The notes: generated by a model from the sequence alone, not told the origin. Positions 2,002 to 46,481 are shown, counted from the stretch's first letter. The stretch: DNA of 46,481 bases from a virus (IMGVR_UViG_648861009_000008); one strand, 5' to 3'. Numbers and translations are program-made.

Positions 2002-2069
2002 GCCAACATATCCTGAATCAGACATACAATATCGCAATGAAAATCAATAATATTTTAAGGAATATCTTC

Positions 2070-2619: not shown

Positions 2620-3210
2620 ATGTCTCGAATTTTTGCTTACTGTCGGATATCAACGCTGGATCAGACCACCGAAAATCAACGCCGGGAAATCGAAAGTGCA
2701 GGTTTTAAAATCAAACCTCAGCAAATAATCGAAGAACACATTAGCGGCTCAGCAGCAACCAGTGAGCGTCCTGGTTTTAACCGGTTGCTTGCTCGCCTGA
2801 AATGTGGTGATCAATTGATTGTGACAAAACTGGATCGCCTTGGTTGTAATGCAATGGATATCAGGAAAACAGTGGAACAACTGACCGAAACAGGTATCAG
2901 AGTGCATTGCTTAGCATTGGGGGGCATTGACCTGACCAGTCCAACAGGAAAAATGATGATGCAAGTAATTTCAGCAGTCGCTGAATTTGAACGAGACCTT
3001 TTACTTGAACGCACTCATTCCGGGATAGTAAGAGCCCGCGGCGCAGGGAAACGTTTTGGTCGACCACCTGTGTTAAATGAAGAACAGAAACAGGTGGTAT
3101 TCGAACGAATTAAGTCAGGTGTAAGTATAAGTGCCATTGCCCGGGAATTCAAAACCTCGCGGCAAACCATTTTAAGAGCCAAAGCAAAACTTCAGACACC
3201 TGACATATAA
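2620..3210 (+). CDS. pinQ: serine-recombinase DNA invertase (Pin/Gin/Hin family)
   Basis: 196 aa; N-terminal catalytic region [10 protein letters not shown]-terminal HTH; placed next to the tail-fibre genes as in Mu gin and e14 pin. Confidence 0.9.
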
Positions 3211-3307
3211 AAAATAATCTCGGTGTGAGATGCTTTACGTCTTCCAAGCCCCCTTCCTTGCCGTAAATGGAAAGATACATCTAATTATAGAATTTATATG
3301 TTTTACC

Positions 3308-3883
3308 CTACGGCAGTGCTGGCCATTCAATATCCTGTGCAGTTGACGTATCAACACGGTTCAGCAATACCCGATACTTTTTCCATGCTTCCAGCAACGA
3401 GATTTCTTCCTCCGTTGCAATTTCCAGATCTGCAGCATCCTGAAGCGGCGCAATATGCTCACTGGCTACCTGCATCAGGTTGTTTTTTGTTTCTTCCGCC
3501 TCCCGGATCCGGAACAGTTTTTCTGCTTCCGTATCCTTCACCCAGGCTGTGCCGTTCCACTTCTGAAACTCCCCTTCCGGGGATAACCAGGTGACATTTT
3601 CCGGTAATGGGCCAAGTTCAGAAATAAATAACGCGTCGCCGGAAGCCACGTCATAGACGGTTTTACCCCGATGATCTTCAACGAGATGCCACGATGCCTC
3701 ATCACTGTTGAAAACAGCCACGAAGCCAGCCGGAATATCTGGCGGTGCAATATCGGTACTGTTTGCTGGCAGACCTGTATGAGGCGGAATATATGCGTCA
3801 CCTTCACCAATAAATTCATTAGTTCCTGCCAGCAGATTATAAATTTTTATGGTCCGTGGTTGTTCACTCATTCTGAATGCCAT
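3308..3883 (-). CDS. tfaQ: tail fibre assembly protein (Tfa)
   Basis: 191 aa; start overlaps the stf stop (TAATG); lambda Tfa-like sequence. Confidence 0.85.
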
Positions 3884-6804: not shown

Positions 6805-6807
6805 CCC

Positions 6808-6836
6808 ACAAAAAAGCCCGCCTGAACCGGCGGGCT
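6808..6836 (-). terminator. Rho-independent terminator downstream of lom
   Basis: Minus-strand hairpin AGCCCGCC-ggttca-GGCGGGCT followed by TTTTTT. Confidence 0.6.
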
Positions 6837-6862
6837 GTCATAACACTGTGTTACCTGGCTAA

Positions 6863-7462
6863 TCAGAACTTATAACCGACACCCACGATGAAACCGTCAG
6901 TGCGCCAGTCGCCACTGCCGGAGCCTTCATAAGCAATATCAATGGCCACGGATTCGGTCGGGTTAAACTGCACGCCAGCTCCCCACGCCAGAGACGTGTT
7001 GCTGTGGCGACCGTCATCACTTCCGGTCAGCACGTCGTGCGTTTTCCCCTTGTTGTCAGTTACGCGGAGATAATCCCCGGAGAAAGTCGACACACGGCTG
7101 TAAGCCATACCCGCCATCGCATACGCGCTGAACCATTCATTCACGCGCACAGACGGCCCCACCATCACGCTGAACCAGCGGTTACGCACGGAATCTTCAT
7201 GCCAGCGGGTATCGCTGTAACGGGTAAGCTGGCGATTCTTGTCTCCTGCATAGCTGAATGACGTCACCAGCCCCAGTGTGTCCGTAAACTCATAACGGTA
7301 TTTCACGTTAATCCCGTTCAGATCATCACTGCCGGGAACGTTCGTCCGGGCATGAAGATACCCCGCGCTCAGCGTGGACTGATGTTCAGACGCCCATGCA
7401 GGCGCACCGGATACGGCCAGACAAATGGCTGCGGACAAAATGGCGGCATAAAGTTTACGCAT
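6863..7462 (-). CDS. lom: Lom/Ail-family outer-membrane beta-barrel protein (moron)
   Basis: 199 aa with signal peptide ([14 protein letters not shown]), C-terminal ...GYKF; same position as lambda lom between J and stf. Confidence 0.85.
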
Positions 7463-7484
7463 AATTACCTCTCGCTTTTCTGCA

Positions 7485-7510
7485 ATAAAAAAGGCGTCAT
7501 TTCTGACGCC
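7485..7510 (-). terminator. Rho-independent terminator between J and lom
   Basis: Minus-strand hairpin GGCGTCA-gaaa-TGACGCC followed by TTTTTTATT. Confidence 0.55.
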
Positions 7511-7528
7511 CGTTCTGGGTTATAAAAT

Positions 7529-9891
<2,363 letters not shown>

Positions 9892-10730
9892 NNNNNNNNN
9901 NNNNNNNNNNNNNNNNNNNNNNNNNNNNNNNNNNNNNNNNNNNNNNNNNNNNNNNNNNNNNNNNNNNNNNNNNNNNNNNNNNNNNNNNNNNNNNNNNNNN
10001 NNNNNNNNNNNNNNNNNNNNNNNNNNNNNNNNNNNNNNNNNNNNNNNNNNNNNNNNNNNNNNNNNNNNNNNNNNNNNNNNNNNNNNNNNNNNNNNNNNNN
10101 NNNNNNNNNNNNNNNNNNNNNNNNNNNNNNNNNNNNNNNNNNNNNNNNNNNNNNNNNNNNNNNNNNNNNNNNNNNNNNNNNNNNNNNNNNNNNNNNNNNN
10201 NNNNNNNNNNNNNNNNNNNNNNNNNNNNNNNNNNNNNNNNNNNNNNNNNNNNNNNNNNNNNNNNNNNNNNNNNNNNNNNNNNNNNNNNNNNNNNNNNNNN
10301 NNNNNNNNNNNNNNNNNNNNNNNNNNNNNNNNNNNNNNNNNNNNNNNNNNNNNNNNNNNNNNNNNNNNNNNNNNNNNNNNNNNNNNNNNNNNNNNNNNNN
10401 NNNNNNNNNNNNNNNNNNNNNNNNNNNNNNNNNNNNNNNNNNNNNNNNNNNNNNNNNNNNNNNNNNNNNNNNNNNNNNNNNNNNNNNNNNNNNNNNNNNN
10501 NNNNNNNNNNNNNNNNNNNNNNNNNNNNNNNNNNNNNNNNNNNNNNNNNNNNNNNNNNNNNNNNNNNNNNNNNNNNNNNNNNNNNNNNNNNNNNNNNNNN
10601 NNNNNNNNNNNNNNNNNNNNNNNNNNNNNNNNNNNNNNNNNNNNNNNNNNNNNNNNNNNNNNNNNNNNNNNNNNNNNNNNNNNNNNNNNNNNNNNNNNNN
10701 NNNNNNNNNNNNNNNNNNNNNNNNNNNNNN
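9892..10730. other. assembly gap (839 N) hiding the 5' end of J, genes K and I, and the 3' end of L
   Basis: Run of N; flanking ORFs are J (C-terminal part) and L (N-terminal part). Confidence 0.95.
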
Positions 10731-11372
10731 AAACTTACAGCCGCTCAGGCATTTGCTGCATTTATCCTTCGTGATATCGGACGTCGGCTGATCATATTCA
10801 TCCGCGACCGCCGGACCGTGATAACCGCACTCGTCACCGCGATAGGTCCAGGTGCAGGTGTTGGCCAGCATGATGCGCCCCGGAAAAACGGCACCGTCCG
10901 TTTCCGTCGGCGTGGACAGTACAAAAGAGGCACTCACCGCGCTCAGTTCGCTGCACTGCTCGATGCGCCAGCGGCTGATCACCTCCTGCTCAGGATCGGC
11001 GTCACTGTTTCCGTTGACGAAGTTCACCGCATCCAGAAAACGGGCGTAAACCTTACGCCTGACCACCGTTCCGCCGACCAGACTCTGCAGATCTTCCGCC
11101 ATCCCGGTGACCATGCCGTGCAGGTTAGAAACCGTCAGTGTCGGACGGGCAGCACTGCCCTTGCCATTCAGTTCAAATCCCGTCCCCTGAATGGGGTATG
11201 CCTGATACTGCCGCCCCTGCCAGGTAACCGGCTCACCTTTTTCGTTCTGCTCATTACAGAAAAAATAACGTTCACCACCGACCTCTGTCAGATCGATTTC
11301 CCAGAGCACCACCTGGGCTGACTGAGTGAGGCGTGTCGTCTCATGATGTGTTTCCTGTGGAATATCCTGCAT
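10731..11372 (-). CDS. L: minor tail protein L (3' end in gap)
   Basis: MQDIPQETHHETTRLTQSAQVVLWEIDLTEVGGERYFFCNEQNEKGEPVTWQGRQYQ... closely matches lambda L as recalled; runs into the N-run. Confidence 0.85.
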
Positions 11373-11381
11373 CAGAGCCTC

Positions 11382-11711
11382 CTATGCCACGACCTGTTCA
11401 AAATCTGCCGTTATGGTTACCCACAACGCCCCCACGCTTGCCGACCATTTACGACAAACCACCCTGATCGGCTTCCAGTCATAAGGTGGCGTCCACTGAA
11501 ATGCGCGGACGCCACCGTGCCGTTCCAGAAAGGCTTTTAAAGATGGGTGTTCACATTTACGAACACGTATCGTCACGCTGTAAGTCGACAACTGGTTATT
11601 CAGTCCCGCCGCACGACGCTGTTCATAACCATCGCCAAGCTTCACTGTCACCACTTTCGGCTCTGATACCACATTCATATCCGGGCGCACTTTCCAGTGA
11701 AACGTCTCCAT
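11382..11711 (-). CDS. M: minor tail protein M
   Basis: 109 aa, same length as lambda M, with ...GDGYEQRRAAGLN...FQWTPPYDWKPIRVVCRKWS... motifs. Confidence 0.85.
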   Translation of the reverse strand: METFHWKVRPDMNVVSEPKVVTVKLGDGYEQRRAAGLNNQLSTYSVTIRVRKCEHPSLKAFLERHGGVRAFQWTPPYDWKPIRVVCRKWSASVGALWVTITADFEQVVA

Positions 11712-26520: not shown

Positions 26521-26714
26521 TTTTTAAATCCAACGACAGACGGCTGGCATTTAAGTATTGTGAAATATTATCAAATGTAATCATCATTGATTTACAAAAG
26601 ATACATTTTGCCCCGAAAGGATTCATGTCAGAAACATCAAAAGATGATGTTCTATACTGGGAACCATGACAACACGGGCATCTAAAGTGAATATGGTTTG
26701 TAATATTGTCTACC

Positions 26715-26927
26715 TCAAAGCGCCACTACATGAACAGCGGCAGGACCTTTAGGTCCGTTCTCAATACCAAATTCAACTTCCTGATTCTCAGTTAATGTTT
26801 TGAAATCGTTGCTCTGAATTGCTGAGAAATGGACAAACACATCTTTGCTGCCATCTTTCGGCGTGATGAAACCAAAACCTTTTTCAGGGTTAAACCATTT
26901 CACTAAACCAGTCATTTTGTTAGACAT
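26715..26927 (-). CDS. cspI: cold-shock protein (CspA family)
   Basis: [23 protein letters not shown]...VHFSAI with RNP1/RNP2 motifs, 70 aa. Confidence 0.9.
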
Positions 26928-27290
26928 AATTATTACCTTTTGAAGAAATTAGCCCTTGGGCAGAATGGTCCGAAAAAAAATATCAGAGAGAAAAACCAAC
27001 AAGGAAATCTCAAGAGGTACAAATAATAAAATTATAACAATGACTGCTTCAGATAAATTTGTAACAAACCAGAACACCATTAACGCATGATTAACCACCC
27101 ATAGCAAGGATTACTTTTGTAAAGAAAAACACAGCAATGAAAGAATAGCTTTATTTATTAATAATAACGTGTCATTCTGATTAAGACCTTTTATCTTACC
27201 CTTAAGATTTCAGGAATTTTGGCTCATGGAAGAGTCCTTTTTATTTAAATTTTACATTCCGCGATGTAAATGTTCCGATTTAATATTACC

Positions 27291-29320: not shown

Positions 29321-29599
29321 GATTGTGGTGCTTTTTGTGGGAGTCATCCACTTACGCACTTTGTTTTGCCATGCCAGCAGTTAGCTTCTGCTGTAAAACT
29401 ATTCATGCAGCAAACCTGCACTTCACCACAATGGTTAGCATACTTTTCCTGATTAAGATTTTGCCAAATATGCTAGCCATTGTTTCATGTATTGGACCTC
29501 CTTACTTTTTATTAAAGAGATCCAATATTCACTACTCTGTCCGTATCTCTACTCAGGCATCAGCCTTCTTCGTTATCGTATACAGACGAGCGATGAATT

Positions 29600-29815
29600 T
29601 TAATCAGTAATGATGACATTTGCTGCTGCAGGACCTTTAGCACCACTCTCTATAGAGAAGGTAACCTTTTGACCTTCAAATAAGGTTCGATAATTATCAT
29701 TCTGAATCGCAGAAAAATGCACAAACACATCTTTACTACCATCAACAGGAGAAATAAAGCCGAAACCTTTATCAGCGTTAAACCATTTTACTAAACCAGT
29801 CATTTTATTTGACAT
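29600..29815 (-). CDS. cspB: cold-shock protein (CspA family)
   Basis: [23 protein letters not shown]...VHFSAIQ..., 71 aa. Confidence 0.9.
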
Positions 29816-30115
29816 TCTACATTCCTTAACTTGAGCCTTTCGGCATAAATGGTTTGCATAACAGAAACGACTTCGTACTTAATTGGAGAGACTCAAAGAA
29901 GGAATAAGTGAATAACACCTGAAATGAGAACTGCTTTAGTAAACTACTTCGTATATCGTCTGTTCTTCAAACCGACGCAATCATTAACGCATAGTTGAAC
30001 ATATGAAGCAATGTTTATTTTAGACATCCAGCCATCTTCAACCCCATCAAAAAACTATAGCTTTCTTCAGGAACGTGTGTATAGTGCGCCAAGTTATCAG
30101 TATTAAGGAATTTTT

Positions 30116-33535: not shown

Positions 33536-34715
33536 NNNNNNNNNNNNNNNNNNNNNNNNNNNNNNNNNNNNNNNNNNNNNNNNNNNNNNNNNNNNNNNNN
33601 NNNNNNNNNNNNNNNNNNNNNNNNNNNNNNNNNNNNNNNNNNNNNNNNNNNNNNNNNNNNNNNNNNNNNNNNNNNNNNNNNNNNNNNNNNNNNNNNNNNN
33701 NNNNNNNNNNNNNNNNNNNNNNNNNNNNNNNNNNNNNNNNNNNNNNNNNNNNNNNNNNNNNNNNNNNNNNNNNNNNNNNNNNNNNNNNNNNNNNNNNNNN
33801 NNNNNNNNNNNNNNNNNNNNNNNNNNNNNNNNNNNNNNNNNNNNNNNNNNNNNNNNNNNNNNNNNNNNNNNNNNNNNNNNNNNNNNNNNNNNNNNNNNNN
33901 NNNNNNNNNNNNNNNNNNNNNNNNNNNNNNNNNNNNNNNNNNNNNNNNNNNNNNNNNNNNNNNNNNNNNNNNNNNNNNNNNNNNNNNNNNNNNNNNNNNN
34001 NNNNNNNNNNNNNNNNNNNNNNNNNNNNNNNNNNNNNNNNNNNNNNNNNNNNNNNNNNNNNNNNNNNNNNNNNNNNNNNNNNNNNNNNNNNNNNNNNNNN
34101 NNNNNNNNNNNNNNNNNNNNNNNNNNNNNNNNNNNNNNNNNNNNNNNNNNNNNNNNNNNNNNNNNNNNNNNNNNNNNNNNNNNNNNNNNNNNNNNNNNNN
34201 NNNNNNNNNNNNNNNNNNNNNNNNNNNNNNNNNNNNNNNNNNNNNNNNNNNNNNNNNNNNNNNNNNNNNNNNNNNNNNNNNNNNNNNNNNNNNNNNNNNN
34301 NNNNNNNNNNNNNNNNNNNNNNNNNNNNNNNNNNNNNNNNNNNNNNNNNNNNNNNNNNNNNNNNNNNNNNNNNNNNNNNNNNNNNNNNNNNNNNNNNNNN
34401 NNNNNNNNNNNNNNNNNNNNNNNNNNNNNNNNNNNNNNNNNNNNNNNNNNNNNNNNNNNNNNNNNNNNNNNNNNNNNNNNNNNNNNNNNNNNNNNNNNNN
34501 NNNNNNNNNNNNNNNNNNNNNNNNNNNNNNNNNNNNNNNNNNNNNNNNNNNNNNNNNNNNNNNNNNNNNNNNNNNNNNNNNNNNNNNNNNNNNNNNNNNN
34601 NNNNNNNNNNNNNNNNNNNNNNNNNNNNNNNNNNNNNNNNNNNNNNNNNNNNNNNNNNNNNNNNNNNNNNNNNNNNNNNNNNNNNNNNNNNNNNNNNNNN
34701 NNNNNNNNNNNNNNN
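33536..34715. other. assembly gap (1180 N) hiding the hok regulatory region and the left part of IS5
   Basis: Run of N between the hokD start and IS5 transposase C-terminal coding sequence. Confidence 0.95.
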
Positions 34716-35173: not shown

Positions 35174-35379
35174 CTAACCTTCTAGTCCGCTTTGAGCGAA
35201 AAACAGCCATAATTTAGTGCCACGTATATAATGATAGAGCTATTCAAGCTAGCAATTCACATGTAAAAATTCAGAGGGTAGAAGCACATAGTTATAAATG
35301 TTGGCTCCATCGACAAATTGCGGTCTCAAGTACATTTATTAATGTTGCCCCCGCATTAACAAATCATCAAGGTGACGAC

Positions 35380-37167
35380 ATGGACGATATTAATATCAGC
35401 CTCGACGAACTTAACACTATTGATTTATCCCCCTTAATCCAGAGTAAGCTGCCAGTTACCTGCTTTGATATCACAAAGTATCTTTCTAGCCTAGGTGATG
35501 GAAGAGCGGAGATAAGACTGCTAACCCATATTTGCGGTTTTCACTTTCGTCCCGAAAATCCACAGGTACCATTTGGTCCGTGCTTTCAAAGCAGCCAAGG
35601 TAGATCTGCAATTCCGGATGACATTAACGGGTTGTCGCTGGAGGTACTTTCTCAATTTTGCCCGACGATAGAGCTACCCGAACTTCAAGCTCGTATTGCT
35701 GATACACTTTGGGTTCGTAAAATTGGTGGAATCCGTTTTCCTTTGCTGGCAGTCCGTGCTTATTATGCGTCCAGTATAGCTATTATGACATCGCAAGGGA
35801 CGTGGGTTAGTGCTTTAGAACGCCTAGAGCGTGCGCTTAGGCTGTGTTGTTTTTTTCGAAAGAATACTGATTTCAGGGATGAATTTGATCAGCTTTCGGC
35901 ACATCTACTAGCAGAGTATGAACGTACCAGAGAACAAGGCGATTCACCTTATCCGCTGCGACTCCTGCAACTCGATATCGACTGTAAAGTGAGTGAGCCA
36001 TCTTTTATTGCCCAGGAACTCCTGTTTCTGACAAAAAACTATCTGGCTCAAAAATTATTTTCATTTGCCGTCGATGCCTGTAAAACCGCAATCACGATTG
36101 CGAATAGGTGCTGTGACAGAGATACACAGTTTGAATTCTGGCGGCTTCTTGCCGATACACATCTGGAAGAGTCAAAATTCCAAGATGGCGGTATGATTTC
36201 GGCAGCCTGCATGCAGAATGCTATTGAAGCACTGGCTAATATTCCAGGAACCCGAATAGAACGTCTTGCGCTGTATGAAGAAATGCGTGATTACCAAATC
36301 GAATCCCGTCACCAGATGTCTATCCTTCAGTCTCCCCCTCAAGATATTAGTGAGATTGTCCATCAAGCCAAGAGTCGGGTAGTCGGAAGAGATATGTTTG
36401 ATATGGTTTTCAGACTTGCGATGCTGGTCTGTCGGCCAACCAGCATTGAGAGACTTAAGGCTCAAGCAATAGAACAAAAGGCCAACAGCATAGCTTGGAT
36501 GTTTGGATCAACACATATTGATCATGAGGGAATGACACTTGCTCGCATACCCGCAGGATTGGGGATTGATGATGCAAATGGGGCAGTTATTTGGCCCATA
36601 ATGATGACGAGAATGCGTATCGACCATGAGTTGGCAGTAGCTGGGCAAATTATTCCTGCTACAGATGAGATCACAATGAAATATCCAATCTCGGAGGCGT
36701 TTTTTCGCGATATGTTCATCAATCATCCCTTCATCCCGTTTGGGCATGAAGAGTTTTTCATCAAGGGTATGGTTTGCGGTTTCAATGGAGATTTTATGAC
36801 GGCATGCCACGTGTTGATTCCCCAGATCGAAAATAGTCTGAGATATGTGGCTAAAATTAAAGGTGAGGAACCATCGCAGCTTCACGGGGACGGTTCGCAA
36901 GAGCGAAATGGACTCAAGGGATTACTAGATAATCCACTGATTATTGAAGCTTTCGGCGTAGACATAATTGGCAATCTTCAGGCCTTACTGGTAGATAAAA
37001 TCTATGGTGATTTACGAAATCAACTAGCTCACGGATATGTGCCTGCCGGTTACTACAATCAACCTCCCTGCATTTTTGCATGGTGGCTTGTATTGCACAT
37101 TCTAATGAACCCTACGGCGAGATACTGGCAAGCCACTTATGGCCAAGAGAGTGAGGCTCAGACTTAA
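35380..37167 (+). CDS. orphan 595-aa protein, mostly helical, C-terminal RNxxxH (HEPN-like) motif; candidate abortive-infection/defence effector
   Basis: Intact ORF with AAGGTGA RBS; opposite strand to the phage early operon; AT-rich upstream region; IS5 end 200 bp upstream; GC and codon use lower than flanking phage genes; motif LVDKIYGDLRNQLAHGY near the C-terminus. Confidence 0.7.
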   Translation: MDDINISLDELNTIDLSPLIQSKLPVTCFDITKYLSSLGDGRAEIRLLTHICGFHFRPENPQVPFGPCFQSSQGRSAIPDDINGLSLEVLSQFCPTIELPELQARIADTLWVRKIGGIRFPLLAVRAYYASSIAIMTSQGTWVSALERLERALRLCCFFRKNTDFRDEFDQLSAHLLAEYERTREQGDSPYPLRLLQLDIDCKVSEPSFIAQELLFLTKNYLAQKLFSFAVDACKTAITIANRCCDRDTQFEFWRLLADTHLEESKFQDGGMISAACMQNAIEALANIPGTRIERLALYEEMRDYQIESRHQMSILQSPPQDISEIVHQAKSRVVGRDMFDMVFRLAMLVCRPTSIERLKAQAIEQKANSIAWMFGSTHIDHEGMTLARIPAGLGIDDANGAVIWPIMMTRMRIDHELAVAGQIIPATDEITMKYPISEAFFRDMFINHPFIPFGHEEFFIKGMVCGFNGDFMTACHVLIPQIENSLRYVAKIKGEEPSQLHGDGSQERNGLKGLLDNPLIIEAFGVDIIGNLQALLVDKIYGDLRNQLAHGYVPAGYYNQPPCIFAWWLVLHILMNPTARYWQATYGQESEAQT

Positions 37168-37264
37168 AGTGAATAAGTTTACGAAGTTGGCACTTCCGGA
37201 TGCATGTCCATATGAGTTGAGGCGATTTGGTTAATAAGGTTGAGTGCTGCTGAAATTATTCGAT

Positions 37265-37288
37265 GTCCGCTTTTGGCACAAAGCGGAC
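37265..37288. terminator. hairpin between the convergent 595-aa and 133-aa genes (possible bidirectional terminator)
   Basis: GTCCGCTTT-tggcac-AAAGCGGAC, 9-bp stem. Confidence 0.4.
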
Positions 37289-37385
37289 AACCACGCCAGA
37301 TCTACCCTGTGCCATGAAAAATGAGAATGTCAATTCACTCCTGAACTAATGCTTTTTAATCTAGTAACGTCTAAAATACCTAACA

Positions 37386-37787
37386 TTATCCCTGATAAAA
37401 TGCCAGTATGCGCTGCATAACTTCACTCATCCGGCACTCGCGACAGATTATGTTTAGGCGACTGTCGTAGCGACGTATTTCTCCATCAGGTAACGACCAG
37501 ATAAGGTCCGGATCAACCACAGCTGTTTTCTTCACCTTTGCCCTCGAGAGTTTTTTGCGGGCGTTTTGCCAGTCCTTACGCGCCTGTTCAGACGGGAATA
37601 ACCCGTAGCCGGAGTTGTATACATCGCCACTGGCTACCAGCTCTCTGGCAAGAACGCTCATCAGATATCTAGTCGCACCTGTTTTAGCTTCCAGTTGCCG
37701 TAACGTCTCACGACCGCTCTGGCGCACGAGTTCCACCACCTGCCCTTTAATTTTTTCCCGCTCTTCTTGTGTAAAAACTTTTGCCAC
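37386..37787 (-). CDS. hypothetical protein in the replication operon (133 aa)
   Basis: ORF 40 nt downstream of the O-like gene on the same strand; not recognised. Confidence 0.5.
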   Translation of the reverse strand: MAKVFTQEEREKIKGQVVELVRQSGRETLRQLEAKTGATRYLMSVLARELVASGDVYNSGYGLFPSEQARKDWQNARKKLSRAKVKKTAVVDPDLIWSLPDGEIRRYDSRLNIICRECRMSEVMQRILAFYQG

Positions 37788-37827
37788 AAGTCCCCCTTAA
37801 AATTACCTCATGACCTGAAATCAAAAC

Positions 37828-38847
37828 TTATCCTCTGAAACCAGGCGGAATTTCTGTATCCGGTTCAGAAATATGATTAACACAACGCTGTACAGGTGAA
37901 CGCCCCAGGCGGATGACCAGTTCGTCCCATTTTTCGCGGAGCTTTGACGGGCTCATGATGTTTTTTACCCAGAATGGATCCCGCTGTACCCGACCAAACA
38001 TTTCACAAATTTGTCTGTGGCTTCTGCCATCCAGCATCCGCATTGTGCGCACATCATTGGCCCAGACAGTCCAGTTAGGCTCTTTTGGTCGCATGATCTC
38101 GCCATCATCACTGGCGGCCTGTTCGTAGAGACCCACGATCCGCCCCCATATCCACTGCGCACACGCCAGATCCTCCTGGCTACCCCACTGGCGTTTTTTC
38201 GCACTAAACACAACTGCGCCAGGGTGCCGGATTAAAAAATCCTGTTCAGCCGTCTGCGGGTCCGGTTGCGAAGCTTCCGGACGAAAAGTGTTTTTATTCT
38301 CTGTAGTAATCTCTGTTGTATTCTCTGTAGGATCATCGGGCCATTTTGACCCGATGACATTGGGTCGTTTTGAACCAATGGAGCGTTTCATTTTGACCTC
38401 TTCCATCGTGTCATTTTGACCTGATGGAGCGGCGCATTTTGAACCGATGGATTCGCTCAATTTGCCATCATCTAAAAGCTCGCTTCCATAGTTAATCGTG
38501 TAGAAATTGGTCATATCGCGCTTTGATTTATTGAGCTTTTCACAACGCAAAAGCCCCAGCGTTTTCAGACTTGCAAACGCGCGCTTTAACGTTGACTCTG
38601 ACCAGAATGGGAACTGTTCCAGCCATTGTTCCGTTGTGTTGTAAATCCAGCGAACACCATCACATTCCATGCCGGAATTGGTATCTCTCAACCAGTAATG
38701 CAACTGCTGCAACACAATGGCTTCATTTAAGCCAATCTTCATCGCAAGCTGTGTGTTTATAACCAGTGGGCGTTCAGCAAAAAGAAGGCTCATAATTCCA
38801 TCCAGCTTTTTGTTGGTATTGCTGTCGATACGCAAGTTTGAAAGCAA
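37828..38847 (-). CDS. replication initiator (lambda O-like) with internal origin iterons; true start uncertain (the ORF overlaps the upstream gene by 74 nt)
   Basis: N-terminal helix-rich DNA-binding-like region; five ~23-bp iterons inside the coding sequence. Confidence 0.7.
   Translation of the reverse strand: MLSNLRIDSNTNKKLDGIMSLLFAERPLVINTQLAMKIGLNEAIVLQQLHYWLRDTNSGMECDGVRWIYNTTEQWLEQFPFWSESTLKRAFASLKTLGLLRCEKLNKSKRDMTNFYTINYGSELLDDGKLSESIGSKCAAPSGQNDTMEEVKMKRSIGSKRPNVIGSKWPDDPTENTTEITTENKNTFRPEASQPDPQTAEQDFLIRHPGAVVFSAKKRQWGSQEDLACAQWIWGRIVGLYEQAASDDGEIMRPKEPNWTVWANDVRTMRMLDGRSHRQICEMFGRVQRDPFWVKNIMSPSKLREKWDELVIRLGRSPVQRCVNHISEPDTEIPPGFRG
38343..38451. repeat. origin iterons: five direct repeats of about 23 bp with core (C/G)ATTTTGA(A/C)C(C/T)NATGGA
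   Basis: ccATTTTGACCCGATGa / cgTTTTGAACCAATGGa / tcATTTTGACCtcttcc / tcATTTTGACCTGATGGa / gcATTTTGAACCGATGGa at regular spacing. Confidence 0.7.
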
Positions 38848-39295
38848 TTGCTTTTTCTATAAGTTCGTCAGTTTCACGATCCACTACGGCAGGATCAGCA
38901 AAAAGCAGTCCGGACTCCACCACATCGCCATATTCTTTGTTTAACCCGGCGATCATGTACGTGATGCTTTTTCCGTCACTAATTTCACGATACAACCTGA
39001 AATCATTAATCCGGATAGCCTCCATAATTGCAGGCACTAGCGCCGTGAACTTTTCACGCTTATCCCTGGTGTCGATAGCCTTCCAGCGTTCGAATATCTT
39101 CACTCGATTAACGCCAAGCGCTCGCTGATCAACCGCGCCACCTTCATCTGTGACACGCTGAACATCGATGTTCGGGCGCTCTTTCAAAGCCCAGAATGCT
39201 TCAGTGATTAATATCGTCGCCTGCTCCTGTGTCATTCCTGGTCGACATATCCAGGCATCCAGAGCCTCACGAGCCTGTTCAGGAGTGATTTTCAT
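38774..39295 (-). CDS. phage early regulatory protein (YdaT/YdfX-like, CII position)
   Basis: 173-aa ORF immediately downstream of the Cro-like dicC on the same strand. Confidence 0.55.
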   Translation of the reverse strand: MKITPEQAREALDAWICRPGMTQEQATILITEAFWALKERPNIDVQRVTDEGGAVDQRALGVNRVKIFERWKAIDTRDKREKFTALVPAIMEAIRINDFRLYREISDGKSITYMIAGLNKEYGDVVESGLLFADPAVVDRETDELIEKAIAFKLAYRQQYQQKAGWNYEPSFC

Positions 39296-39506
39296 TGTTC
39301 AACCGCCCCGCCCGCTTCGTCTTACGATATTCGTCATAAACCTTGGGATCATACAGAAGCTCGCCGCCAGATGCCTCCTGTAGACGCATCGCGCGACCTT
39401 CAGGAACCAGCTCTTGCCATTGAGAAACAGCAGATGGGTCAACGCCAGCAGCTTTCGCTACTTTGGCTTTCGTACCGTAAAAATTAATTACGTCTGATTT
39501 AAACAT
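39279..39506 (-). CDS. dicC: Cro-like repressor DicC
   Basis: MFKSDVINFYGTKAKVAKAAGVDPSAVSQWQELVPEGRAMRLQEASGGELLYDPKVYDEYRK...; divergent from dicA. Confidence 0.8.
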   Translation of the reverse strand: MFKSDVINFYGTKAKVAKAAGVDPSAVSQWQELVPEGRAMRLQEASGGELLYDPKVYDEYRKTKRAGRLNNENHS

Positions 39507-39583
39507 CGCACCTCCAGTATTGAGTTTTCTCAATGCTAATCACTCAAGGAATCTCAAGTCAAGGGTTATTAAGATATCTAAAT
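39507..39583. promoter_or_regulatory. divergent dicC/dicA promoter-operator region with palindrome ATTGAG-tttt-CTCAAT (39518..39533)
   Basis: 77-bp intergenic region between divergent repressor genes containing a dyad. Confidence 0.5.
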
Positions 39584-39991
39584 ATGAACGAGAAAACTTT
39601 AGGTCAACGCATTAGAGAAAGACGTAAGCAGGTAGGTTTAAGTCAAAACGGTTTAAGCAAAGCTGCTGGCGTATCTGGCTCATCAATTTCATTATGGGAA
39701 AGTGACCATACAGCCCCGCGCGGGCAAAATTTGCATCGCCTCGCCGAGGTATTGCAATGTTCACCAACCTGGATACTGTTTGGCGACGAGGACAAAACAC
39801 CAGCTCCCCCTGTTTCACTCGATAGTGCCTTAGACTTATCGGAAGATGAGTTAGAGATGCTGCGTTTGTATCGCGCACTTCCTAAATCAGAGCAACAAGC
39901 ACAACTCAGCGAACTCCGCGCCCGCGTTGAGAATTTTAATCGCCTGTTCACCGAGCTATTAGAGGCTCGCAAACGCAACAAGCATCAATAA
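39584..39991 (+). CDS. dicA: CI-like HTH repressor DicA
   Basis: ...GQRIRERRKQVGLSQNGLSKAAGVSGSSISLWE...LQCSPTWILFGDEDK... matches DicA as recalled; the ORF track starts at 39533. Confidence 0.85.
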   Translation: MNEKTLGQRIRERRKQVGLSQNGLSKAAGVSGSSISLWESDHTAPRGQNLHRLAEVLQCSPTWILFGDEDKTPAPPVSLDSALDLSEDELEMLRLYRALPKSEQQAQLSELRARVENFNRLFTELLEARKRNKHQ

Positions 39992-40183
39992 TCATCCCTT
40001 CACAAAATTTTAAAGCCTTACATTTCAATGTATTGGCTTTATCTTGCGCCAATACTTGAGTTTTCTCATCAAAAAGCCTTGACGAAAAATAATGAGAAAA
40101 CTAAATTACCTCCATCAACACACCGCACGGTGTTCTCAGCAAACAGTTCCGCTACCCCGGCGTTAAGGGGAAATGAGGTCAGC

Positions 40184-40339
40184 ATGGATACTATCGATCT
40201 TGGCAACAACGAATCTCTGGTGTACGGCGTGTTTCCAAACCAGGACGGCACGTTCACCGCAATGACGTATACCAAAAGCAAAACGTTTAAAACCGAAAAT
40301 GGTGCCCGTCGCTGGCTGGAAAGAAACTCAGGTGAGTGA
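40184..40339 (+). CDS. ydfA: YdfA small protein
   Basis: MDTIDLGNNESLVYGVFPNQDGTFTAMTYTKSKTFKTENGARRWLERNSGE; GAGGT RBS. Confidence 0.8.
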   Translation: MDTIDLGNNESLVYGVFPNQDGTFTAMTYTKSKTFKTENGARRWLERNSGE

Positions 40340-40340
40340 T

Positions 40341-40853
40341 ATGGATTTCGACACAATCATGGAAAAGGCTTACGAAGAATACTTCGAAGGCCTTGCCGAA
40401 GGCGAAGAAGCTCTCAGCTTCAGTGAGTTTAAACAGGCACTCAGAATAAGAATGCGCTCTCACAATGACGCGGAGCACAAATATGAGAAGCAAAATCAGA
40501 CCGCAGAAAATTTTGTTCTGGAACCCGGAGAAACGCTTTTCAAAATTCCCGTTACGTGCCCCATTTGCGGTTTTACATCAGAAGAACTTGACGACTCCTG
40601 TAACAATCAGGAAACAACCAAGTATGTCGAAGATGATACCGAGTGCGCACGAAGAACGATTATATCCACGAGTCCAAACTCCAGGACCAATAAATCTCAC
40701 TTTGAGAGGGTGATTAATCCACTCCCCCAAACCAATAAAAAAGATGCCGGAGGACAAAAAACCAATGGAACAACGGGATATCTGTCAAAAAAAGACGTTC
40801 CATTAAAGACAAACAACGCAGCGCCAACAACTGTAAGCGCTTTATACCAGTAA
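40341..40853 (+). CDS. ydfB: YdfB-like protein (170 aa here; K-12 ydfB is shorter as recalled)
   Basis: MDFDTIMEKAYEEYFEGLAEGEEALSFSEFKQAL... then a longer C-terminal part with a CPICGF zinc-ribbon-like motif; start overlaps the ydfA stop. Confidence 0.65.
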   Translation: MDFDTIMEKAYEEYFEGLAEGEEALSFSEFKQALRIRMRSHNDAEHKYEKQNQTAENFVLEPGETLFKIPVTCPICGFTSEELDDSCNNQETTKYVEDDTECARRTIISTSPNSRTNKSHFERVINPLPQTNKKDAGGQKTNGTTGYLSKKDVPLKTNNAAPTTVSALYQ

Positions 40854-40951
40854 TCAATTTTCATGTTCTTAAGCGGATTTATTGGTGGTTGCGACATTGC
40901 TTAATGAATCCTTAAAACTGTGGTGATTTTAAGGATACCACCTCGCCTGAC

Positions 40952-41239
40952 GTGGTTAAAAGCAGGCACACAACACGAAAGCGCACGGCGAAGTTCGTCT
41001 CACTGTACGGTGTCGTCAAATTTAATTCGACCGTGCGCTTCCGGTTGTGGCAACCCGCGAAATGGCGCGGCGGTAAGTATGGCGGGGTTATTCCTTCCCC
41101 GTTGAGGACACCGAGTTGTCAGGTTGACCATACGCTTAAGCGACAACCCCGCTGCAACGCCCTCTGTTATCAATTTTCTGGTGACGTTTGGCGGTATCAG
41201 TTTTACTCCGTGACTGCTCTGCCGCCGTTTTTAAAGTGA
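40952..41239 (+). CDS. ydfC: YdfC-like ORF; the reading frame runs through the DicF region, so the true end is uncertain
   Basis: MVKSRHTTRKRTAKFVSLYGVVKFNSTVRF... Confidence 0.4.
   Translation: MVKSRHTTRKRTAKFVSLYGVVKFNSTVRFRLWQPAKWRGGKYGGVIPSPLRTPSCQVDHTLKRQPRCNALCYQFSGDVWRYQFYSVTALPPFLK
41175..41227 (+). ncRNA. dicF: DicF small regulatory RNA (about 53 nt) followed by a T-run at 41228..41232
   Basis: TTTCTGGTGACGTTTGGCGGTATCAGTTTTACTCCGTGACTGCTCTGCCGCC matches DicF as recalled, between ydfC and dicB. Confidence 0.85.
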
Positions 41240-41401
41240 ATTTTGTGATGCGGTGAATGCGGCTAAGCGCACGCGGAACAGTTAAAACCAAAAACAGTGT
41301 TATGGGTGGATTCTCTGTATCCGGCGTTAATTGTTAACTGGTTAACGTCACCTGGAGGCACCAGGCACTGCATCACAAAATTCATTGTTGAGGACGCGAT
41401 A

Positions 41402-41590
41402 ATGAAAACGTTATTACCAAACGTTAATACGTCTGAAGGTTGTTTTGAAATTGGTGTCACTATCAGTAACCCTGTATTTACTGAAGATGCCATTAACAAG
41501 AGAAAACAAGAACGGGAGCTATTAAATAAAATATGCATTGTTTCAATGCTGGCTCGTTTACGTCTGATGCCAAAAGGATGTGCACAATGA
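41402..41590 (+). CDS. dicB: cell-division inhibitor DicB
   Basis: MKTLLPNVNTSEGCFEIGVTISNPVFTEDAINKRKQERELLNKICIVSMLARLRLMPKGCAQ (62 aa). Confidence 0.9.
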   Translation: MKTLLPNVNTSEGCFEIGVTISNPVFTEDAINKRKQERELLNKICIVSMLARLRLMPKGCAQ

Positions 41591-41778
41591 ATTCAGCATT
41601 TGCGCTTGTTCTGACAGTTTTTCTTGTTTCCGGAGAGCCAGTTGATATTGCAGTCAGTGTTCACAGGACAATGCAGGAGTGTATGACTGCAGCAACCGAA
41701 CAGAAAATTCCCGGTAACTGTTACCCGGTCGATAAAGTTATTCACCAGTATAATATCGAAATCCCGGCAGGTCTTTAA
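41587..41778 (+). CDS. ydfD: YdfD small membrane protein
   Basis: MNSAFALVLTVFLVSGEPVDIAVSVHRTMQECMTAATEQKIPGNCYPVDKVIHQYNIEIPAGL; ATGA overlap with dicB. Confidence 0.85.
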   Translation: MNSAFALVLTVFLVSGEPVDIAVSVHRTMQECMTAATEQKIPGNCYPVDKVIHQYNIEIPAGL

Positions 41779-41871
41779 AACAGTTCCGTAATAAATATCC
41801 GGTTTCATTCTTATATGCCAGCAATGGCAGGGATTTGTTCATCCTTAAATCTGTCATGAGGTTAAAACAAA

Positions 41872-44262
41872 ATGAGTAAAGTCTTTATTTGCGCCGCTAT
41901 TCCTGACGAACTGGCAACAAGGGAAGAAGGCGCTGTGGCTGTAGCCACAGCCATTGAAGCTGGCGACGAACGCCGTGCTCGAGCAAAATTTCACTGGCAA
42001 TTCCTGGAACATTATCCGGCTGCTCAGGACTGCGCTTATAAATTTATTGTCTGCGAGGATAAACCTGGCATACCCCGCCCTGCCCTCGATTCATGGGATG
42101 CTGAATATATGCAGGAAAACCGCTGGGATGAGGAGTCTGCTTCTTTTGTCCCGGTTGAGACTGAATCCGATCCGATGAACGTCACTTTTGACAAGCTGGC
42201 CCCTGAAGTACAGAACGCTGTCATGGTTAAGTTCGACACATGTGAAAACATCACCGTTGATATGGTTATTAGCGCACAGGAATTGTTGCAGGAAGACATG
42301 GCAACATTCGACGGACATATCGTTGAAGCGTTGATGAAAATGCCAGAAGTTAACGCCATGTATCCGGAGCTTAAGTTGCACGCCATTGGGTGGGTTAAGC
42401 ATAAATGTATTCCTGGTGCTAAATGGCCCGAAATTCAGGCAGAGATGCGCATCTGGAAAAAACGTCGCGAAGGTGAACGCAAGGAAACCGGAAAATACAC
42501 GTCTGTTGTTGATCTCGCCCGCGCCAGAGCCAATCAACAGTACACTGAAAATTCAACAGGAAAAATCAGCCCGGTCATTGCTGCCATTCATCGCGAATAC
42601 AAGCAGACATGGAAAACACTGGATGACGAACTGGCCTACGCTCTCTGGCCTGGTGATGTGGATGCCGGAAACATTGACGGCAGCATCCATCGCTGGGCAA
42701 AAAATGAAGTTATCGATAACGACCGCGAAGACTGGAAGCGTATCTCGGCATCAATGCGCAAACAGCCTGATGCCCTTCGCTACGACCGCCAAACTATTTT
42801 TGGCCTTGTCCGTGAACGTCCGATCGACATTCACAAAGATCCCGTAGCACTGAACAAATATATCTGCGAATACCTGACGACAAAGGGCGTGTTTGAGAAT
42901 GAAGAAACAGACCTGGGCACTGTTGATGTTCTCCAGTCATCAGAAACACAAACTGATGCAGTGGAAACTGAGGTATCTGATATCCCAAAAAATGAAACCG
43001 CGCCGGAAGCTGAACCATCTGTAGAGCGTGAGGGGCCGTTCTATTTCCTCTTCGCAGATAAGGACGGAGAAAAATACGGTCGCGCAAACAAACTTTCTGG
43101 TCTGGATAAGGCACTGGCTGCTGGCGCCACTGAAATCACAAAAGAAGAATATTTTGCCCGAAAAAATGGCACATACACGGGCTTACCGCAAAATGTAGAT
43201 ACCGCTGAAGATTCAGAACAACCAGAGCCGATAAAAGTTACCGCTGACGAAGTAAACAAAATTATGCAGGCAGCCAATATCATCCAGCCTGACGCCGATA
43301 AGTTGCTTGCTGCATCACGTGGTGAATTTGTTGAAGGGATTAGTGACCCGAATGATCCGAAATGGGTTAAGGGGATCCAGACCCGCGATTCTGTGAACCA
43401 GAACCAGCATGAATCGGAACGGAACTACCAAAAAGCGGAACAAAACAGCCCAAATGCGTTACAAAACGAGCCAGAAACGAAACAGCCTGAATCAGTGGCG
43501 CAACAGGAAGTGGAAAAAGTCTGCACCGCCTGCGGTCAGACCGGCGGCGGCAACTGCCCTGATTGTGGCGCGGTAATGGGCGACGCAACATACCAGGAAA
43601 CATTCGATGAAGAGTATCAGGTTGAAGTTCAGGAAGATGATCCGGAGAAAATGGAAGGCGCTGAACATCCACACAAGGAGAACACTGGCGGCAATCAGCA
43701 TCACGATAGCGATAATGAAACTGGCGAGACGGCAGATCACTCAATTAAGGTGAACGGTCATCACGAAATCACATCCACCAGCAGGACGTGTGACCATCTA
43801 ATGATCGACCTTGAAACCATGGGAAAAAATCCTGATGCCCCGATCATCTCAATAGGTGCAATATTTTTCGATCCGCAAACCGGAGATATGGGACCGGAAT
43901 TTATTAAGACTATCGATCTGGAAACTGCTGGCGGAGTCATTGATCGGGACACCATTAAATGGTGGTTTAAGCAATCACGCGAAGCGCAATCTGCCATTAT
44001 GACCGATGAAATCCCGTTAGATGATGCACTGTTACAATTGCGGGAATTTATCGACGAAAACTCCGGTGAATTTTTTGTTCAGGTCTGGGGAAATGGAGCC
44101 AACTTCGACAACACGATTTTGCGCCGTTCATACGAACGGCAGGGGATCCCCTGCCCGTGGCGTTACTACAACGATCGCGATGTACGCACAATCGTTGAGC
44201 TGGGGAAAGCCATAGACTTCGATGCCAGAACGGCTATTCAATTCGAAGGTGAGCGCCGATAA
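41872..44262 (+). CDS. large prophage protein with C-terminal DnaQ-like DEDDh 3'-5' exonuclease domain; C-terminus truncated here by indels at a contig end, true end probably at 44842
   Basis: Exo motifs MIDLETMG, WGNGANFDNTIL and (in the second copy) HNALDDARYQ; lambda exo position in the pL operon. Confidence 0.8.
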   Translation: MSKVFICAAIPDELATREEGAVAVATAIEAGDERRARAKFHWQFLEHYPAAQDCAYKFIVCEDKPGIPRPALDSWDAEYMQENRWDEESASFVPVETESDPMNVTFDKLAPEVQNAVMVKFDTCENITVDMVISAQELLQEDMATFDGHIVEALMKMPEVNAMYPELKLHAIGWVKHKCIPGAKWPEIQAEMRIWKKRREGERKETGKYTSVVDLARARANQQYTENSTGKISPVIAAIHREYKQTWKTLDDELAYALWPGDVDAGNIDGSIHRWAKNEVIDNDREDWKRISASMRKQPDALRYDRQTIFGLVRERPIDIHKDPVALNKYICEYLTTKGVFENEETDLGTVDVLQSSETQTDAVETEVSDIPKNETAPEAEPSVEREGPFYFLFADKDGEKYGRANKLSGLDKALAAGATEITKEEYFARKNGTYTGLPQNVDTAEDSEQPEPIKVTADEVNKIMQAANIIQPDADKLLAASRGEFVEGISDPNDPKWVKGIQTRDSVNQNQHESERNYQKAEQNSPNALQNEPETKQPESVAQQEVEKVCTACGQTGGGNCPDCGAVMGDATYQETFDEEYQVEVQEDDPEKMEGAEHPHKENTGGNQHHDSDNETGETADHSIKVNGHHEITSTSRTCDHLMIDLETMGKNPDAPIISIGAIFFDPQTGDMGPEFIKTIDLETAGGVIDRDTIKWWFKQSREAQSAIMTDEIPLDDALLQLREFIDENSGEFFVQVWGNGANFDNTILRRSYERQGIPCPWRYYNDRDVRTIVELGKAIDFDARTAIQFEGERR

Positions 44263-44299
44263 TGCACTTGATGACGCCGTTACCAGGCAAAATACGTTT

Positions 44300-44351
44300 N
44301 NNNNNNNNNNNNNNNNNNNNNNNNNNNNNNNNNNNNNNNNNNNNNNNNNNN
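44300..44351. other. assembly gap (52 N) between two overlapping copies of the same ~445-bp sequence
   Basis: 43851..44299 and 44352..44798 are near-identical apart from single-base indels. Confidence 0.9.
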
Positions 44352-44356
44352 AATAG

Positions 44357-44842
44357 GTGCAATATTTTTCGATCCGCAAACCGGAGATATGGACCGAATT
44401 TATTAAGACTATCGATCTGGAAACTGCTGGCGGAGTCATTGATCGGGACACCATTAAATGGTGGTTTAAGCAATCACGCGAAGCGCAATCTGCCATTATG
44501 ACCGATGAAATCCCGTTAGATGATGCACTGTTACAATTGCGGGAATTTATCGACGAAAACTCCGGTGAATTTTTTGTTCAGGTCTGGGGAAATGGAGCCA
44601 ACTTCGACAACACGATTTTGCGCCGTTCATACGAACGGCAGGGGATCCCCTGCCCGTGGCGTTACTACAACGATCGCGATGTACGCACAATCGTTGAGCT
44701 GGGGAAAGCCATAGACTTCGATGCCAGAACGGCTATTCAATTCGAAGGTGAGCGCCATAATGCACTTGATGACGCCCGTTACCAGGCAAAATACGTTTCA
44801 GTTATCTGGCAAAAACTGATCCCGAGTCAGGCTGATTCTTAA
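44357..44842 (+). CDS. exonuclease C-terminal segment (second copy; carries the true 3' end of the gene)
   Basis: 161-aa ORF repeating ...EFIKTIDLETAGGVIDRDTIKWW... and continuing ...HNALDDARYQAKYVSVIWQKLIPSQADS. Confidence 0.6.
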   Translation: MQYFSIRKPEIWTEFIKTIDLETAGGVIDRDTIKWWFKQSREAQSAIMTDEIPLDDALLQLREFIDENSGEFFVQVWGNGANFDNTILRRSYERQGIPCPWRYYNDRDVRTIVELGKAIDFDARTAIQFEGERHNALDDARYQAKYVSVIWQKLIPSQADS

Positions 44843-44914
44843 TGTTCAACTGTCGCCGGTTGTGACTGGTATTCTGCAACCGGCGCTCGTCTAATATAAG
44901 AGATAAAGAAATCG

Positions 44915-45166
44915 ATGAGCGAAGTAATCATGATTGTCTCTCCCGGCAAATGGGTATCCGAAGAGCAGTTAATTGCGCTGAAAGGAATAAAAAAAGGTAC
45001 GTTAAAAAAGGCCCGGGAAAAATCGTTTATGGAAGGAAGGGAATATAAGCATGTCGCTCATGACGGTATGCCATGGGATAACAGTCCATGCTTTTACAAC
45101 CTGGAAGAAATTGATCGCTGGATTGAGCGCCAGGCATCAGCAAGACCAAGACGTCATCTTACTTGA
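44915..45166 (+). CDS. xis: excisionase-like small protein
   Basis: 83-aa basic ORF immediately upstream of the integrase. Confidence 0.55.
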   Translation: MSEVIMIVSPGKWVSEEQLIALKGIKKGTLKKAREKSFMEGREYKHVAHDGMPWDNSPCFYNLEEIDRWIERQASARPRRHLT

Positions 45167-45200
45167 CTAAAAGCCACACTAACTAATGAGAGAAGTTGAA

Positions 45201-46481
45201 ATGAAATATCCGACAGGCGTGGAAAACCATGGAGGGAAATTACGTATCTGGTTTGTTTATAAAGGCGTAAGAGTCAGGGAAAACCTGGGGGTTCCTGACA
45301 CAGCAAAAAACAGGCGCGTTGCAGGTGAGCTACGCGCCTCTGTTTGTTACGCAATAAAAACTGGTGTTTTCGACTATGCAAAACAGTTTCCCTCCTCACG
45401 CAATCTGGAAAAATTTGGTGAGGCCCGACAAGATTTAACCATAAAAGAACTGGCTGAAAAATTTCTGGCACTGAAAGAAACTGAAGTCGCAAAAACATCA
45501 CTCAACACATACCGTGCCGTCATCAAAAATATCCTGAGCATAATCGGTGAAAAAAATCTTGCCTCATCGATTAATAAAGAAAAATTACTGGAGGTTCGTA
45601 AAGAGCTACTGACTGGATACCAGATCCCCAAAAGTAACTATATTGTTACACAACCAGGGAGATCGGCTGTAACTGTAAATAATTACATGACAAATCTTAA
45701 CGCCGTGTTCCAGTTTGGTGTTGATAACGGTTACCTGGTAGATAACCCGTTTAAGGGGATCTCGCCATTAAAGGAATCAAGAACCATTCCGGATCCTCTT
45801 TCGCGGGAGGAATTCATCCGTCTTATCGATGCGTGCAGAAATCAGCAAGCCAAAAATTTATGGTGTGTTTCTGTTTATACTGGCGTTCGCCCTGGTGAGC
45901 TGTGTGCACTTGGATGGGAGGACATAGATCTGAAAAATGGAACAATGATGATCAGGAGAAATTTAGCAAAAGACCGTTTCACGGTACCAAAAACACAGGC
46001 GGGAACCAATCGGGTCATTCATCTTATTAAGCCAGCAATCGACGCTCTCCGGAGTCAGATGACATTAACGAGACTGAGCAAAGAGCATATCATTGATGTT
46101 CACCTCAGAGAGTATGGCAGAACAGAAAAACAAAAATGCACCTTTGTTTTTCAACCTGAAGTGTCAGCGAGAGTAAAAAATTATGGTGACCATTTTACCG
46201 TTGACTCAATAAGGCAGATGTGGGACGCAGCGATAAAACGTGCCGGACTCCGCCATCGAAAATCATATCAGTCGAGACATACTTATGCCTGCTGGTCGCT
46301 GACAGCTGGTGCTAACCCGGCATTTATAGCAAACCAGATGGGCCATGCAGATGCGCAAATGGTATTTCAGGTATACGGAAAATGGATGTCTGAAAACAAT
46401 AATGCACAGGTAGCTTTGTTAAATACACAGTTAAGCGAGTTTGCCCCAACCATGCCCCATAACGAAGCAATGAAAAATTAA
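45201..46481 (+). CDS. intQ: tyrosine integrase (lambda Int family)
   Basis: 427 aa from MKYPTGVENHGGKLRIWFVYKG...; C-terminal catalytic region with ...RHTYACW...; stop at the last base of the window. Confidence 0.9.
   Translation: MKYPTGVENHGGKLRIWFVYKGVRVRENLGVPDTAKNRRVAGELRASVCYAIKTGVFDYAKQFPSSRNLEKFGEARQDLTIKELAEKFLALKETEVAKTSLNTYRAVIKNILSIIGEKNLASSINKEKLLEVRKELLTGYQIPKSNYIVTQPGRSAVTVNNYMTNLNAVFQFGVDNGYLVDNPFKGISPLKESRTIPDPLSREEFIRLIDACRNQQAKNLWCVSVYTGVRPGELCALGWEDIDLKNGTMMIRRNLAKDRFTVPKTQAGTNRVIHLIKPAIDALRSQMTLTRLSKEHIIDVHLREYGRTEKQKCTFVFQPEVSARVKNYGDHFTVDSIRQMWDAAIKRAGLRHRKSYQSRHTYACWSLTAGANPAFIANQMGHADAQMVFQVYGKWMSENNNAQVALLNTQLSEFAPTMPHNEAMKN

Follow-up and report, generated by a model that had tools for sequence, protein, structure and literature searches.

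The 3' end of the window (the window being the whole stretch of 46,481 nucleotides that was analysed) carries an exonuclease gene, an excisionase gene (DUF1233) and a tyrosine integrase gene, in this order and on the same strand (Table 1). As deposited, the exonuclease gene is represented by two ORFs placed around a run of N. Direct reading of positions 42000-46481, with a script for the count, sets this run at 44300-44351 and at exactly 52 N. Further N runs were found by script at 9892-10730 (839 N) and 33536-34715 (1180 N). Four contigs make up the scaffold, which comes from a draft assembly and represents a lambdoid prophage of E. coli of the Qin type.

Table 1. Features of the exonuclease locus, and segments of the window aligned with the 118UI prophage (coordinates of the reference locus, L003).
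Feature	Window position	Strand	118UI (L003) position	Remarks
Exonuclease ORF as deposited	41872-44262	+		796 aa; ends ...FEGERR, stop; cut just before the Exo III motif (H-x4-D)
Repeat copy 1	43851-44299	+		449 nt; 3' end of the contig that stops at the N run; apparently correct except near its own 3' end
Indel GGG/GG	43890-43892 (copy 1, GGG); 44391-44392 (copy 2, GG)	+		copy 2 one G short
Indel GG/G	43896-43897 (copy 1, GG); 44396 (copy 2, G)	+		four bases past GGG/GG; copy 2 one G short
Extra G, probably spurious	44258	+		copy 1; without counterpart in copy 2, 118UI, HannyBb or PhiR42_1
Indel CC/CCC	44277-44278 (copy 1, CC); 44775-44777 (copy 2, CCC)	+		copy 1 one C short; all references CCC
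Scaffold gap	44300-44351	.		52 N; real distance between contig ends probably -449 nt, i.e. an overlap
Repeat copy 2	44352-44798	+		447 nt; 5' start of the following contig; apparently correct except near its own 5' end
Second ORF as deposited, probably spurious	44357-44842	+		161 aa; first 12 codons out of frame, the rest being the true C-terminal part of the exonuclease
Merged gene, piece 1	41872-44196	+		joined to 44696-44842
Merged gene, piece 2	44696-44842	+		last 147 nt, with stop codon
Excisionase gene (DUF1233)	44915-45166	+		3' of the exonuclease gene; spacing as in complete relatives
Tyrosine integrase gene	45186-46481	+		stop codon is the end of the window
Alignment	1-6815		1052-7866	
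Alignment	6807-9891		8569-11653	
Alignment	10731-33535		14101-36909	
Alignment	35174-44299		37377-46503	
Alignment	44352-46481		46055-48186	

The sequence that leads up to the first N and the sequence that begins just after the last one are copies of each other. Their alignment contains four single-base indels and no substitution, and a repeat finder returns exact shared blocks of 41 nt (43851-43891 and 44352-44392), 300 nt (43897-44196 and 44396-44695), 20 nt (44259-44278 and 44757-44776) and 23 nt (44277-44299 and 44776-44798), the start-to-start spacing of these direct repeats being 498-501 nt. Exact blocks of 41, 300, 20 and 23 nt cannot be attributed to chance. The initial annotation had described 43851-44299 and 44352-44798 as the same sequence around a 52-N gap, coordinates that both the alignment and the repeat finder reproduce exactly; the three differences that it named (GGG/GG, CC/CCC and an extra G) are all present, and a fourth (GG/G), which it did not list separately, has to be added. 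Copy 1 corresponds to nucleotides 1980-2428 of the gene, that is, to codons 660-810, which make up most of the catalytic domain.

The indels were compared with three relatives in which the gene is annotated, the 118UI prophage and the phages HannyBb and PhiR42_1. At each of the four, one copy agrees with these references and the other deviates, and the deviant base is always in the copy that has a contig end nearby (copy 1 at the 3' side, copy 2 at the 5' side). The two indels of copy 1 are located 41 and about 23 nt from the end of the third contig, and those of copy 2 at 40 and about 43 nt from the start of the fourth. The region of copy 2 where both G are missing (44391-44396) reads GGGACCGG in copy 1 and in all references, and their loss puts the beginning of copy 2 out of frame. 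On the opposite side, the extra G of copy 1 at 44258 produces a frameshift and a premature TAA (44260-44262), and it is because of this presumably false frameshift that the Exo III motif is missing from the deposited ORF. Taking as background the interior indel rate of the same window against 118UI (7 in 44,320 nt), the Poisson probability of finding four indels within the 90 nt adjoining the gap is 1.7e-9; if four errors were distributed at random over the 896 nt of both copies, the probability that all of them fall in those 90 nt is 1e-4. In a four-way alignment with HannyBb and PhiR42_1 each of the indels is private to one copy, and both copies carry all five substitutions that separate this strain from the two phages.

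When the two copies are merged, with the join placed anywhere in the 300-nt exact block (the result is identical), a gene of 2472 nt and 823 aa is obtained, which is identical to the exonuclease gene of 118UI at 2472 of 2472 nt (product annotated as WP_000048333.1) and whose protein has 9 residues that differ from the HannyBb protein and 11 that differ from that of PhiR42_1. The initial annotation had estimated the real gene at about 825 aa and the excess length of the window at about 500 bp; both figures were close, and merging refines them to 823 aa and, at this junction, to 499 nt (447 + 52), the distance from the gene start to the end of the window being thereby shortened from 4610 to 4111 nt. 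Its description of the two deposited frames, one stopped early as ...FEGERR in the first copy and the other passing HNALDDARY to 44842 in the second, coincides with the ORFs of 796 and 161 aa found here. The latter reads through ...FEGERHNALDDARY..., including HNALDDARY, to what would be the true stop codon (44840-44842), and its sequence after the out-of-frame beginning is ...FEGERHNALDDARYQAKYVSVIWQKLIPSQADS, followed by the stop. The real locus would thus hold one uninterrupted gene of 2472 nt, coding for a protein of 823 aa, with the excisionase and integrase genes downstream of it. Compared with the exonucleases of lambdoid prophages of the Qin, mEp460 and HannyBb type, no difference is left once the presumed artefact is removed (100% DNA identity to 118UI), and the gene order dicB, ydfD, exonuclease, xis, int is common to the prophage of the window, HannyBb, PhiR42_1 and 118UI.

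The merged protein matches the Rv2179c-like 3'-5' exonuclease family of Pfam (PF16473) at residues 642-813, over positions 2-177 of the 177 of the profile (E = 1.6e-66; 223.8 bits against a cut-off of 27), and RNase_T gives a weak Pfam match over the same stretch. It contains the motifs MIDLETMG (644-651), GNGANFDNTIL (740-750) and HNALDDARY (796-804), which we take, from general knowledge of DEDDh exonucleases, to be Exo I (DxE), Exo II (D) and Exo III (H-x4-D). The full-length domain and the three motifs are common to the Rv2179c-like exonucleases, although here the domain is predicted to be the C-terminal fifth of an 823-aa protein and not a free-standing one. A four-cysteine motif, CTACGQTGGGNCPDCG, is found at residues 551-566, and the nearest solved structure by sequence is PDB 8KEL, a 227-aa 'Exodeoxyribonuclease' (E = 1.4e-6). 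The NCBIfam model of exodeoxyribonuclease VIII (NF007259) is matched only by residues 246-625, against model positions 271-602 of 877 and with 281 bits for a cut-off of 1269. An assignment as RecE equivalog was therefore rejected, the score being below the cut-off and the C-terminal nuclease part of the model being unmatched. The part of RecE that corresponds to model positions 271-602 is dispensable for its nuclease activity. The middle region is common to RecE (exodeoxyribonuclease VIII of the Rac prophage), whereas the nuclease domain differs, being here of the DEDDh Rv2179c-like type; judged by these profile matches, the merged protein is a RecE-like middle region followed by a putative C-terminal DEDDh 3'-5' exonuclease domain (residues 642-813). 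An end-to-end match (residues 1-822 of 823) is provided by phrog_2082, an 'exonuclease' family of PHROGs, and the gene is a common, already catalogued prophage exonuclease, with no new biology in it.

In a megablast search of phage records with the segment 41872-44299, full-length matches of 98.9-99.2% identity were found in the Escherichia phages HannyBb, PhiR42_1 and Tritos, where the gene is annotated as exonuclease or exodeoxyribonuclease VIII, and some other phages match only the 3' 1068 nt of the query. The annotated gene measures 2472 nt and is single-copy in HannyBb, PhiR42_1 and 118UI alike; in HannyBb and PhiR42_1 it is followed, after 72 nt, by an excisionase gene of 252 nt and then by an integrase gene of 1296 nt. 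A query of 1501 nt (43600-45100) matched 4127 records of complete E. coli genomes. The best 40 of these (99.7% identity) align with it as two pieces over 1002 nt, so that the query exceeds them by 499 nt. A second sample was taken of 60 records at even steps through the whole ranking, 59 of which cover the repeat; all 59 have a deficit of about 499 nt relative to the matched part of the query (498-501 nt in 58): query positions 1-1501 take up 1002 nt, for example, positions 1-1287 take up 788 nt and positions 1-1251 take up 752 nt. In record H104 there are four alignment pieces, a span of 1030 nt and a deficit of 469 nt. Neither tandem copies nor a duplication were found in the 99 complete E. 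coli records inspected (the best 40 and the 59 evenly sampled). The 37-mer of copy 1 that contains the error had 0 exact matches in viral_contigs, and no exact counterpart of the truncated 796-aa product was on record.

The whole window was also aligned with 49.9 kb of the complete genome of E. coli 118UI (NZ_CP032515.1), its closest complete relative, and is colinear with a single prophage located between ydfJ and rspB, the Qin site, with ydfJ at the start of the window and the integrase beside rspB at its end. Both flanks of the 52-N run are at least 99.9% identical to 118UI, where they overlap at 46055-46503, that is, by 449 nt, the length of copy 1. All the differences between the window and 118UI amount to three substitutions, seven single-base indels in contig interiors and the four indels of the repeat; each of the seven interior indels is a length change of an A or T run, and six of them fall inside genes annotated in 118UI.

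The other two N runs give an indication of how far gap lengths can be trusted in this scaffold. Where the window has 839 N, 118UI contains 2447 nt, occupied by the tail genes J to L. Among the listed records with 100% identical flanks, none has the two flanks joined, so they must be more than 1520 nt apart; the 839-N estimate is, on this comparison, off by about 1.6 kb. The 1180 N are bordered by hokD on one side and by the last 460-490 nt of an IS5 copy on the other, and strain EFF60, in which hokD and IS5 are arranged in the same way, contains 1212 nt in their place (an estimate good to about 30 nt). Each of the three gaps falls in a sequence that E. coli genomes carry in several copies: the tail segment is found at a median of 4 places per genome (up to 16), IS5 at up to 43 places, and the exonuclease/excisionase segment at 8264 places, distributed over 4113 genomes with at most 8 in each. 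As for a repeat of just this 449-nt extent as the cause of the contig break, no homology boundary was found among the best places sampled at 43851 or at 44299, and the only boundaries lie past the gene end, at 44850 and 44886.

To judge from these sequence comparisons, the duplication is almost certainly an assembly artefact, formed by overlapping and unmerged contig ends of a draft scaffold. This agrees with the initial annotation, which had read the locus as overlapping contig ends joined by N, and is borne out by the 449-nt overlap on 118UI, by the identity of the merged gene and by the single copy in the relatives. The contig that ends at 44299 and the one that starts at 44352 would share the same 449 nt of the exonuclease gene, each of them with two single-base indel errors in its terminal 45 nt or so, and they may have been left unmerged because these indels spoil an exact end-to-end overlap. 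The scaffolder would then have ordered the contigs correctly, inserting a positive gap estimate of 52 N. That homopolymer indels outnumber substitutions suggests a sequencing chemistry prone to miscounting such runs, and pyrosequencing or semiconductor sequencing, for example, could be responsible for such indel-dominated errors. The contig break at this locus may be due to low coverage or to another copy of the segment elsewhere in the source genome, the latter being a plausible cause. If the duplication is an artefact, no read should link ...AAAATACGTTT and the sequence downstream of it to ...AATAGGTGCAATA.

A genuine in-frame tandem duplication of about 501 nt (167 codons), comprising most of the DEDDh exonuclease domain, with its junction inside the 52 N and with indels caused by sequencing errors or decay, is extremely improbable. 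It would fit the spacing that results from the exact N count and the corrected indels (449 + 52 = 501 nt, a multiple of three), as well as the positive gap given by the scaffolder, and the 1180-N estimate is good to about 30 nt; but the 839-N estimate is wrong by about 1.6 kb, so that a discrepancy of 501 nt (+52 instead of -449) is within the range of this scaffold and unremarkable, and, accuracy being mixed between these two gaps, the +52 estimate is uninformative on the choice between artefact and real duplication. To our knowledge, 52 N is not a recognised minimum-gap placeholder, which counts against the artefact to some extent. Such a duplication, whose product would have about 990 aa, is absent from the 99 complete E. 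coli records and from the three annotated relatives, with their 2472-nt genes, and an assembler that meets two identical tandem copies of 449 nt should collapse them instead of splitting them between contig ends. Nor does it predict that the inner boundaries of the repeat coincide exactly with those of the N run, or that the four differences lie no more than about 43 nt away, whereas errors at contig ends do predict differences clustered at the edges.

It is also very unlikely that the join is chimeric, that is, that the two contigs come from two prophages of the same genome sharing the 3' part of the exonuclease gene, and that unrelated neighbours were linked. This possibility is favoured by the several copies of the exonuclease/excisionase segment that many E. 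coli genomes contain (8264 places over 4113 genomes), by mosaic boundaries a short way beyond the gene end (at positions 1251 and 1287 of the query, equivalent to 44850 and 44886 in the window) and by phages whose similarity is limited to the 3' 1068 nt of the query that stops at 44299. However, no aligned position differs between the copies, the five strain-specific substitutions among them, and the flanks are colinear, with at least 99.9% identity, with one 118UI prophage from ydfJ to the integrase, in the order of a single prophage. An origin of the contigs from two prophages would not make the duplication in the window any less of an artefact.

Unmerged contig ends at this locus would resemble the false ('homotype') duplications described in other assemblies, which likewise consist of near-identical copies around a scaffold gap, show error-type differences only, collapse to one copy in better assemblies and give rise to a false truncation and a false extra gene fragment in the annotation (Kelley & Salzberg 2010, PMC2864568; Ko et al. 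2022, PMC9516828). A scaffold gap between the duplicated copies is used as a criterion of false duplication, and one class of false duplications carries sequencing errors (Ko et al. 2022, PMC9516828). Here the copies abut the N run, the flanks overlap at a single-copy locus, the differences are of error type and clustered at the ends, and merging restores the gene. The cited cases are vertebrate and mostly due to haplotype divergence (PMC2864568, PMC9516828), whereas the present one would concern overlapping, error-bearing contig ends of a haploid bacterial prophage.

The value of the observation is one of data quality only. The deposited locus yields a truncated 796-aa exonuclease without its third catalytic motif and a stray 161-aa fragment, which might wrongly be taken for a pseudogene, for a gained gene or for a duplicated domain, and removal of 499 nt returns a common and intact 823-aa prophage gene. 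Further draft signs, relevant to any later reading of the window, are the other two N runs, which fall on repeated DNA, and the seven homopolymer indels.

The window (1-46481) is apparently a complete Qin-type lambdoid prophage inserted at the ydfJ/rspB site, beginning within the ydfJ remnant and finishing at the integrase stop codon. In the prophage of E. coli 118UI (NZ_CP032515.1), the closest complete relative, the sequence is interrupted by an IS200C; the window has no such insertion, and the corresponding junction lies at 6807-6815. Its features, including those assigned by Rfam, are collected in the table.

Features of the prophage and of the merged exonuclease protein
Feature	Position	Strand	Remark
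IS009	3342-3540	-	Rfam
N run, 839 N	9892-10730		within tail genes
cspA thermoregulator element	26688-27073	-	Rfam
cspA thermoregulator element	29584-29976	-	Rfam
N run, 1180 N	33536-34715		begins 1 nt upstream of hokD start codon
IS5 copy, last 460-490 nt	34716 to ~35190		directly after 1180-N run
DicF RNA	41176-41227	+	Rfam
Merged exonuclease gene	41872-44842		
A/T-run length changes vs 118UI	12636, 21400, 25980, 26021, 26420, 33284, 40755		
phrog_5943	residues 1-257		merged-gene protein
phrog_31653	residues 1-81		merged-gene protein
phrog_14078	residues 560-822		merged-gene protein
phrog_8783	residues 710-822		merged-gene protein

When the window is aligned with 118UI, the flanks of the 839-N run are separated by 2447 nt in the latter (part of J, a tail assembly protein gene, a C40 peptidase gene and the start of L), and therefore the run is too short for the true gap by about 1.6 kb. 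These flanks are multi-copy across E. coli genomes, with a median of 4 places per genome, and comparison with 118UI revealed no overlap of contig ends at this run. The end of an IS5 follows the 1180-N run, so that this element separates hokD from the DUF4209 gene. 118UI lacks this IS5, but strain EFF60 carries it at the same position, with 1212 nt where the window has 1180 N.

The same alignment contains seven single-base differences in the length of A or T runs, against only 3 substitutions in 44 kb. According to the 118UI annotation, all except one are intragenic (six of the seven: tape measure, portal, gnsB twice, ynfN and a hypothetical gene). These changes are probably homopolymer sequencing errors, in which case they would produce false frameshifts.

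The merged gene, rebuilt from the two overlapping contig ends around the 52-N run, is labelled exodeoxyribonuclease VIII in several phage records. This label is misleading: the likeness of its protein to RecE is limited to residues 246-625 (281 bits versus a cut-off of 1269), whereas its own nuclease domain is of the DEDDh Rv2179c-like type. The protein has the appearance of a RecE-type scaffold whose catalytic domain has been swapped. PHROGs contains separate families that match this protein only in fragments, suggesting that many deposited phage genomes carry the exonuclease gene in split or truncated form, whether through real decay or through an error of the kind seen at the 52-N run.
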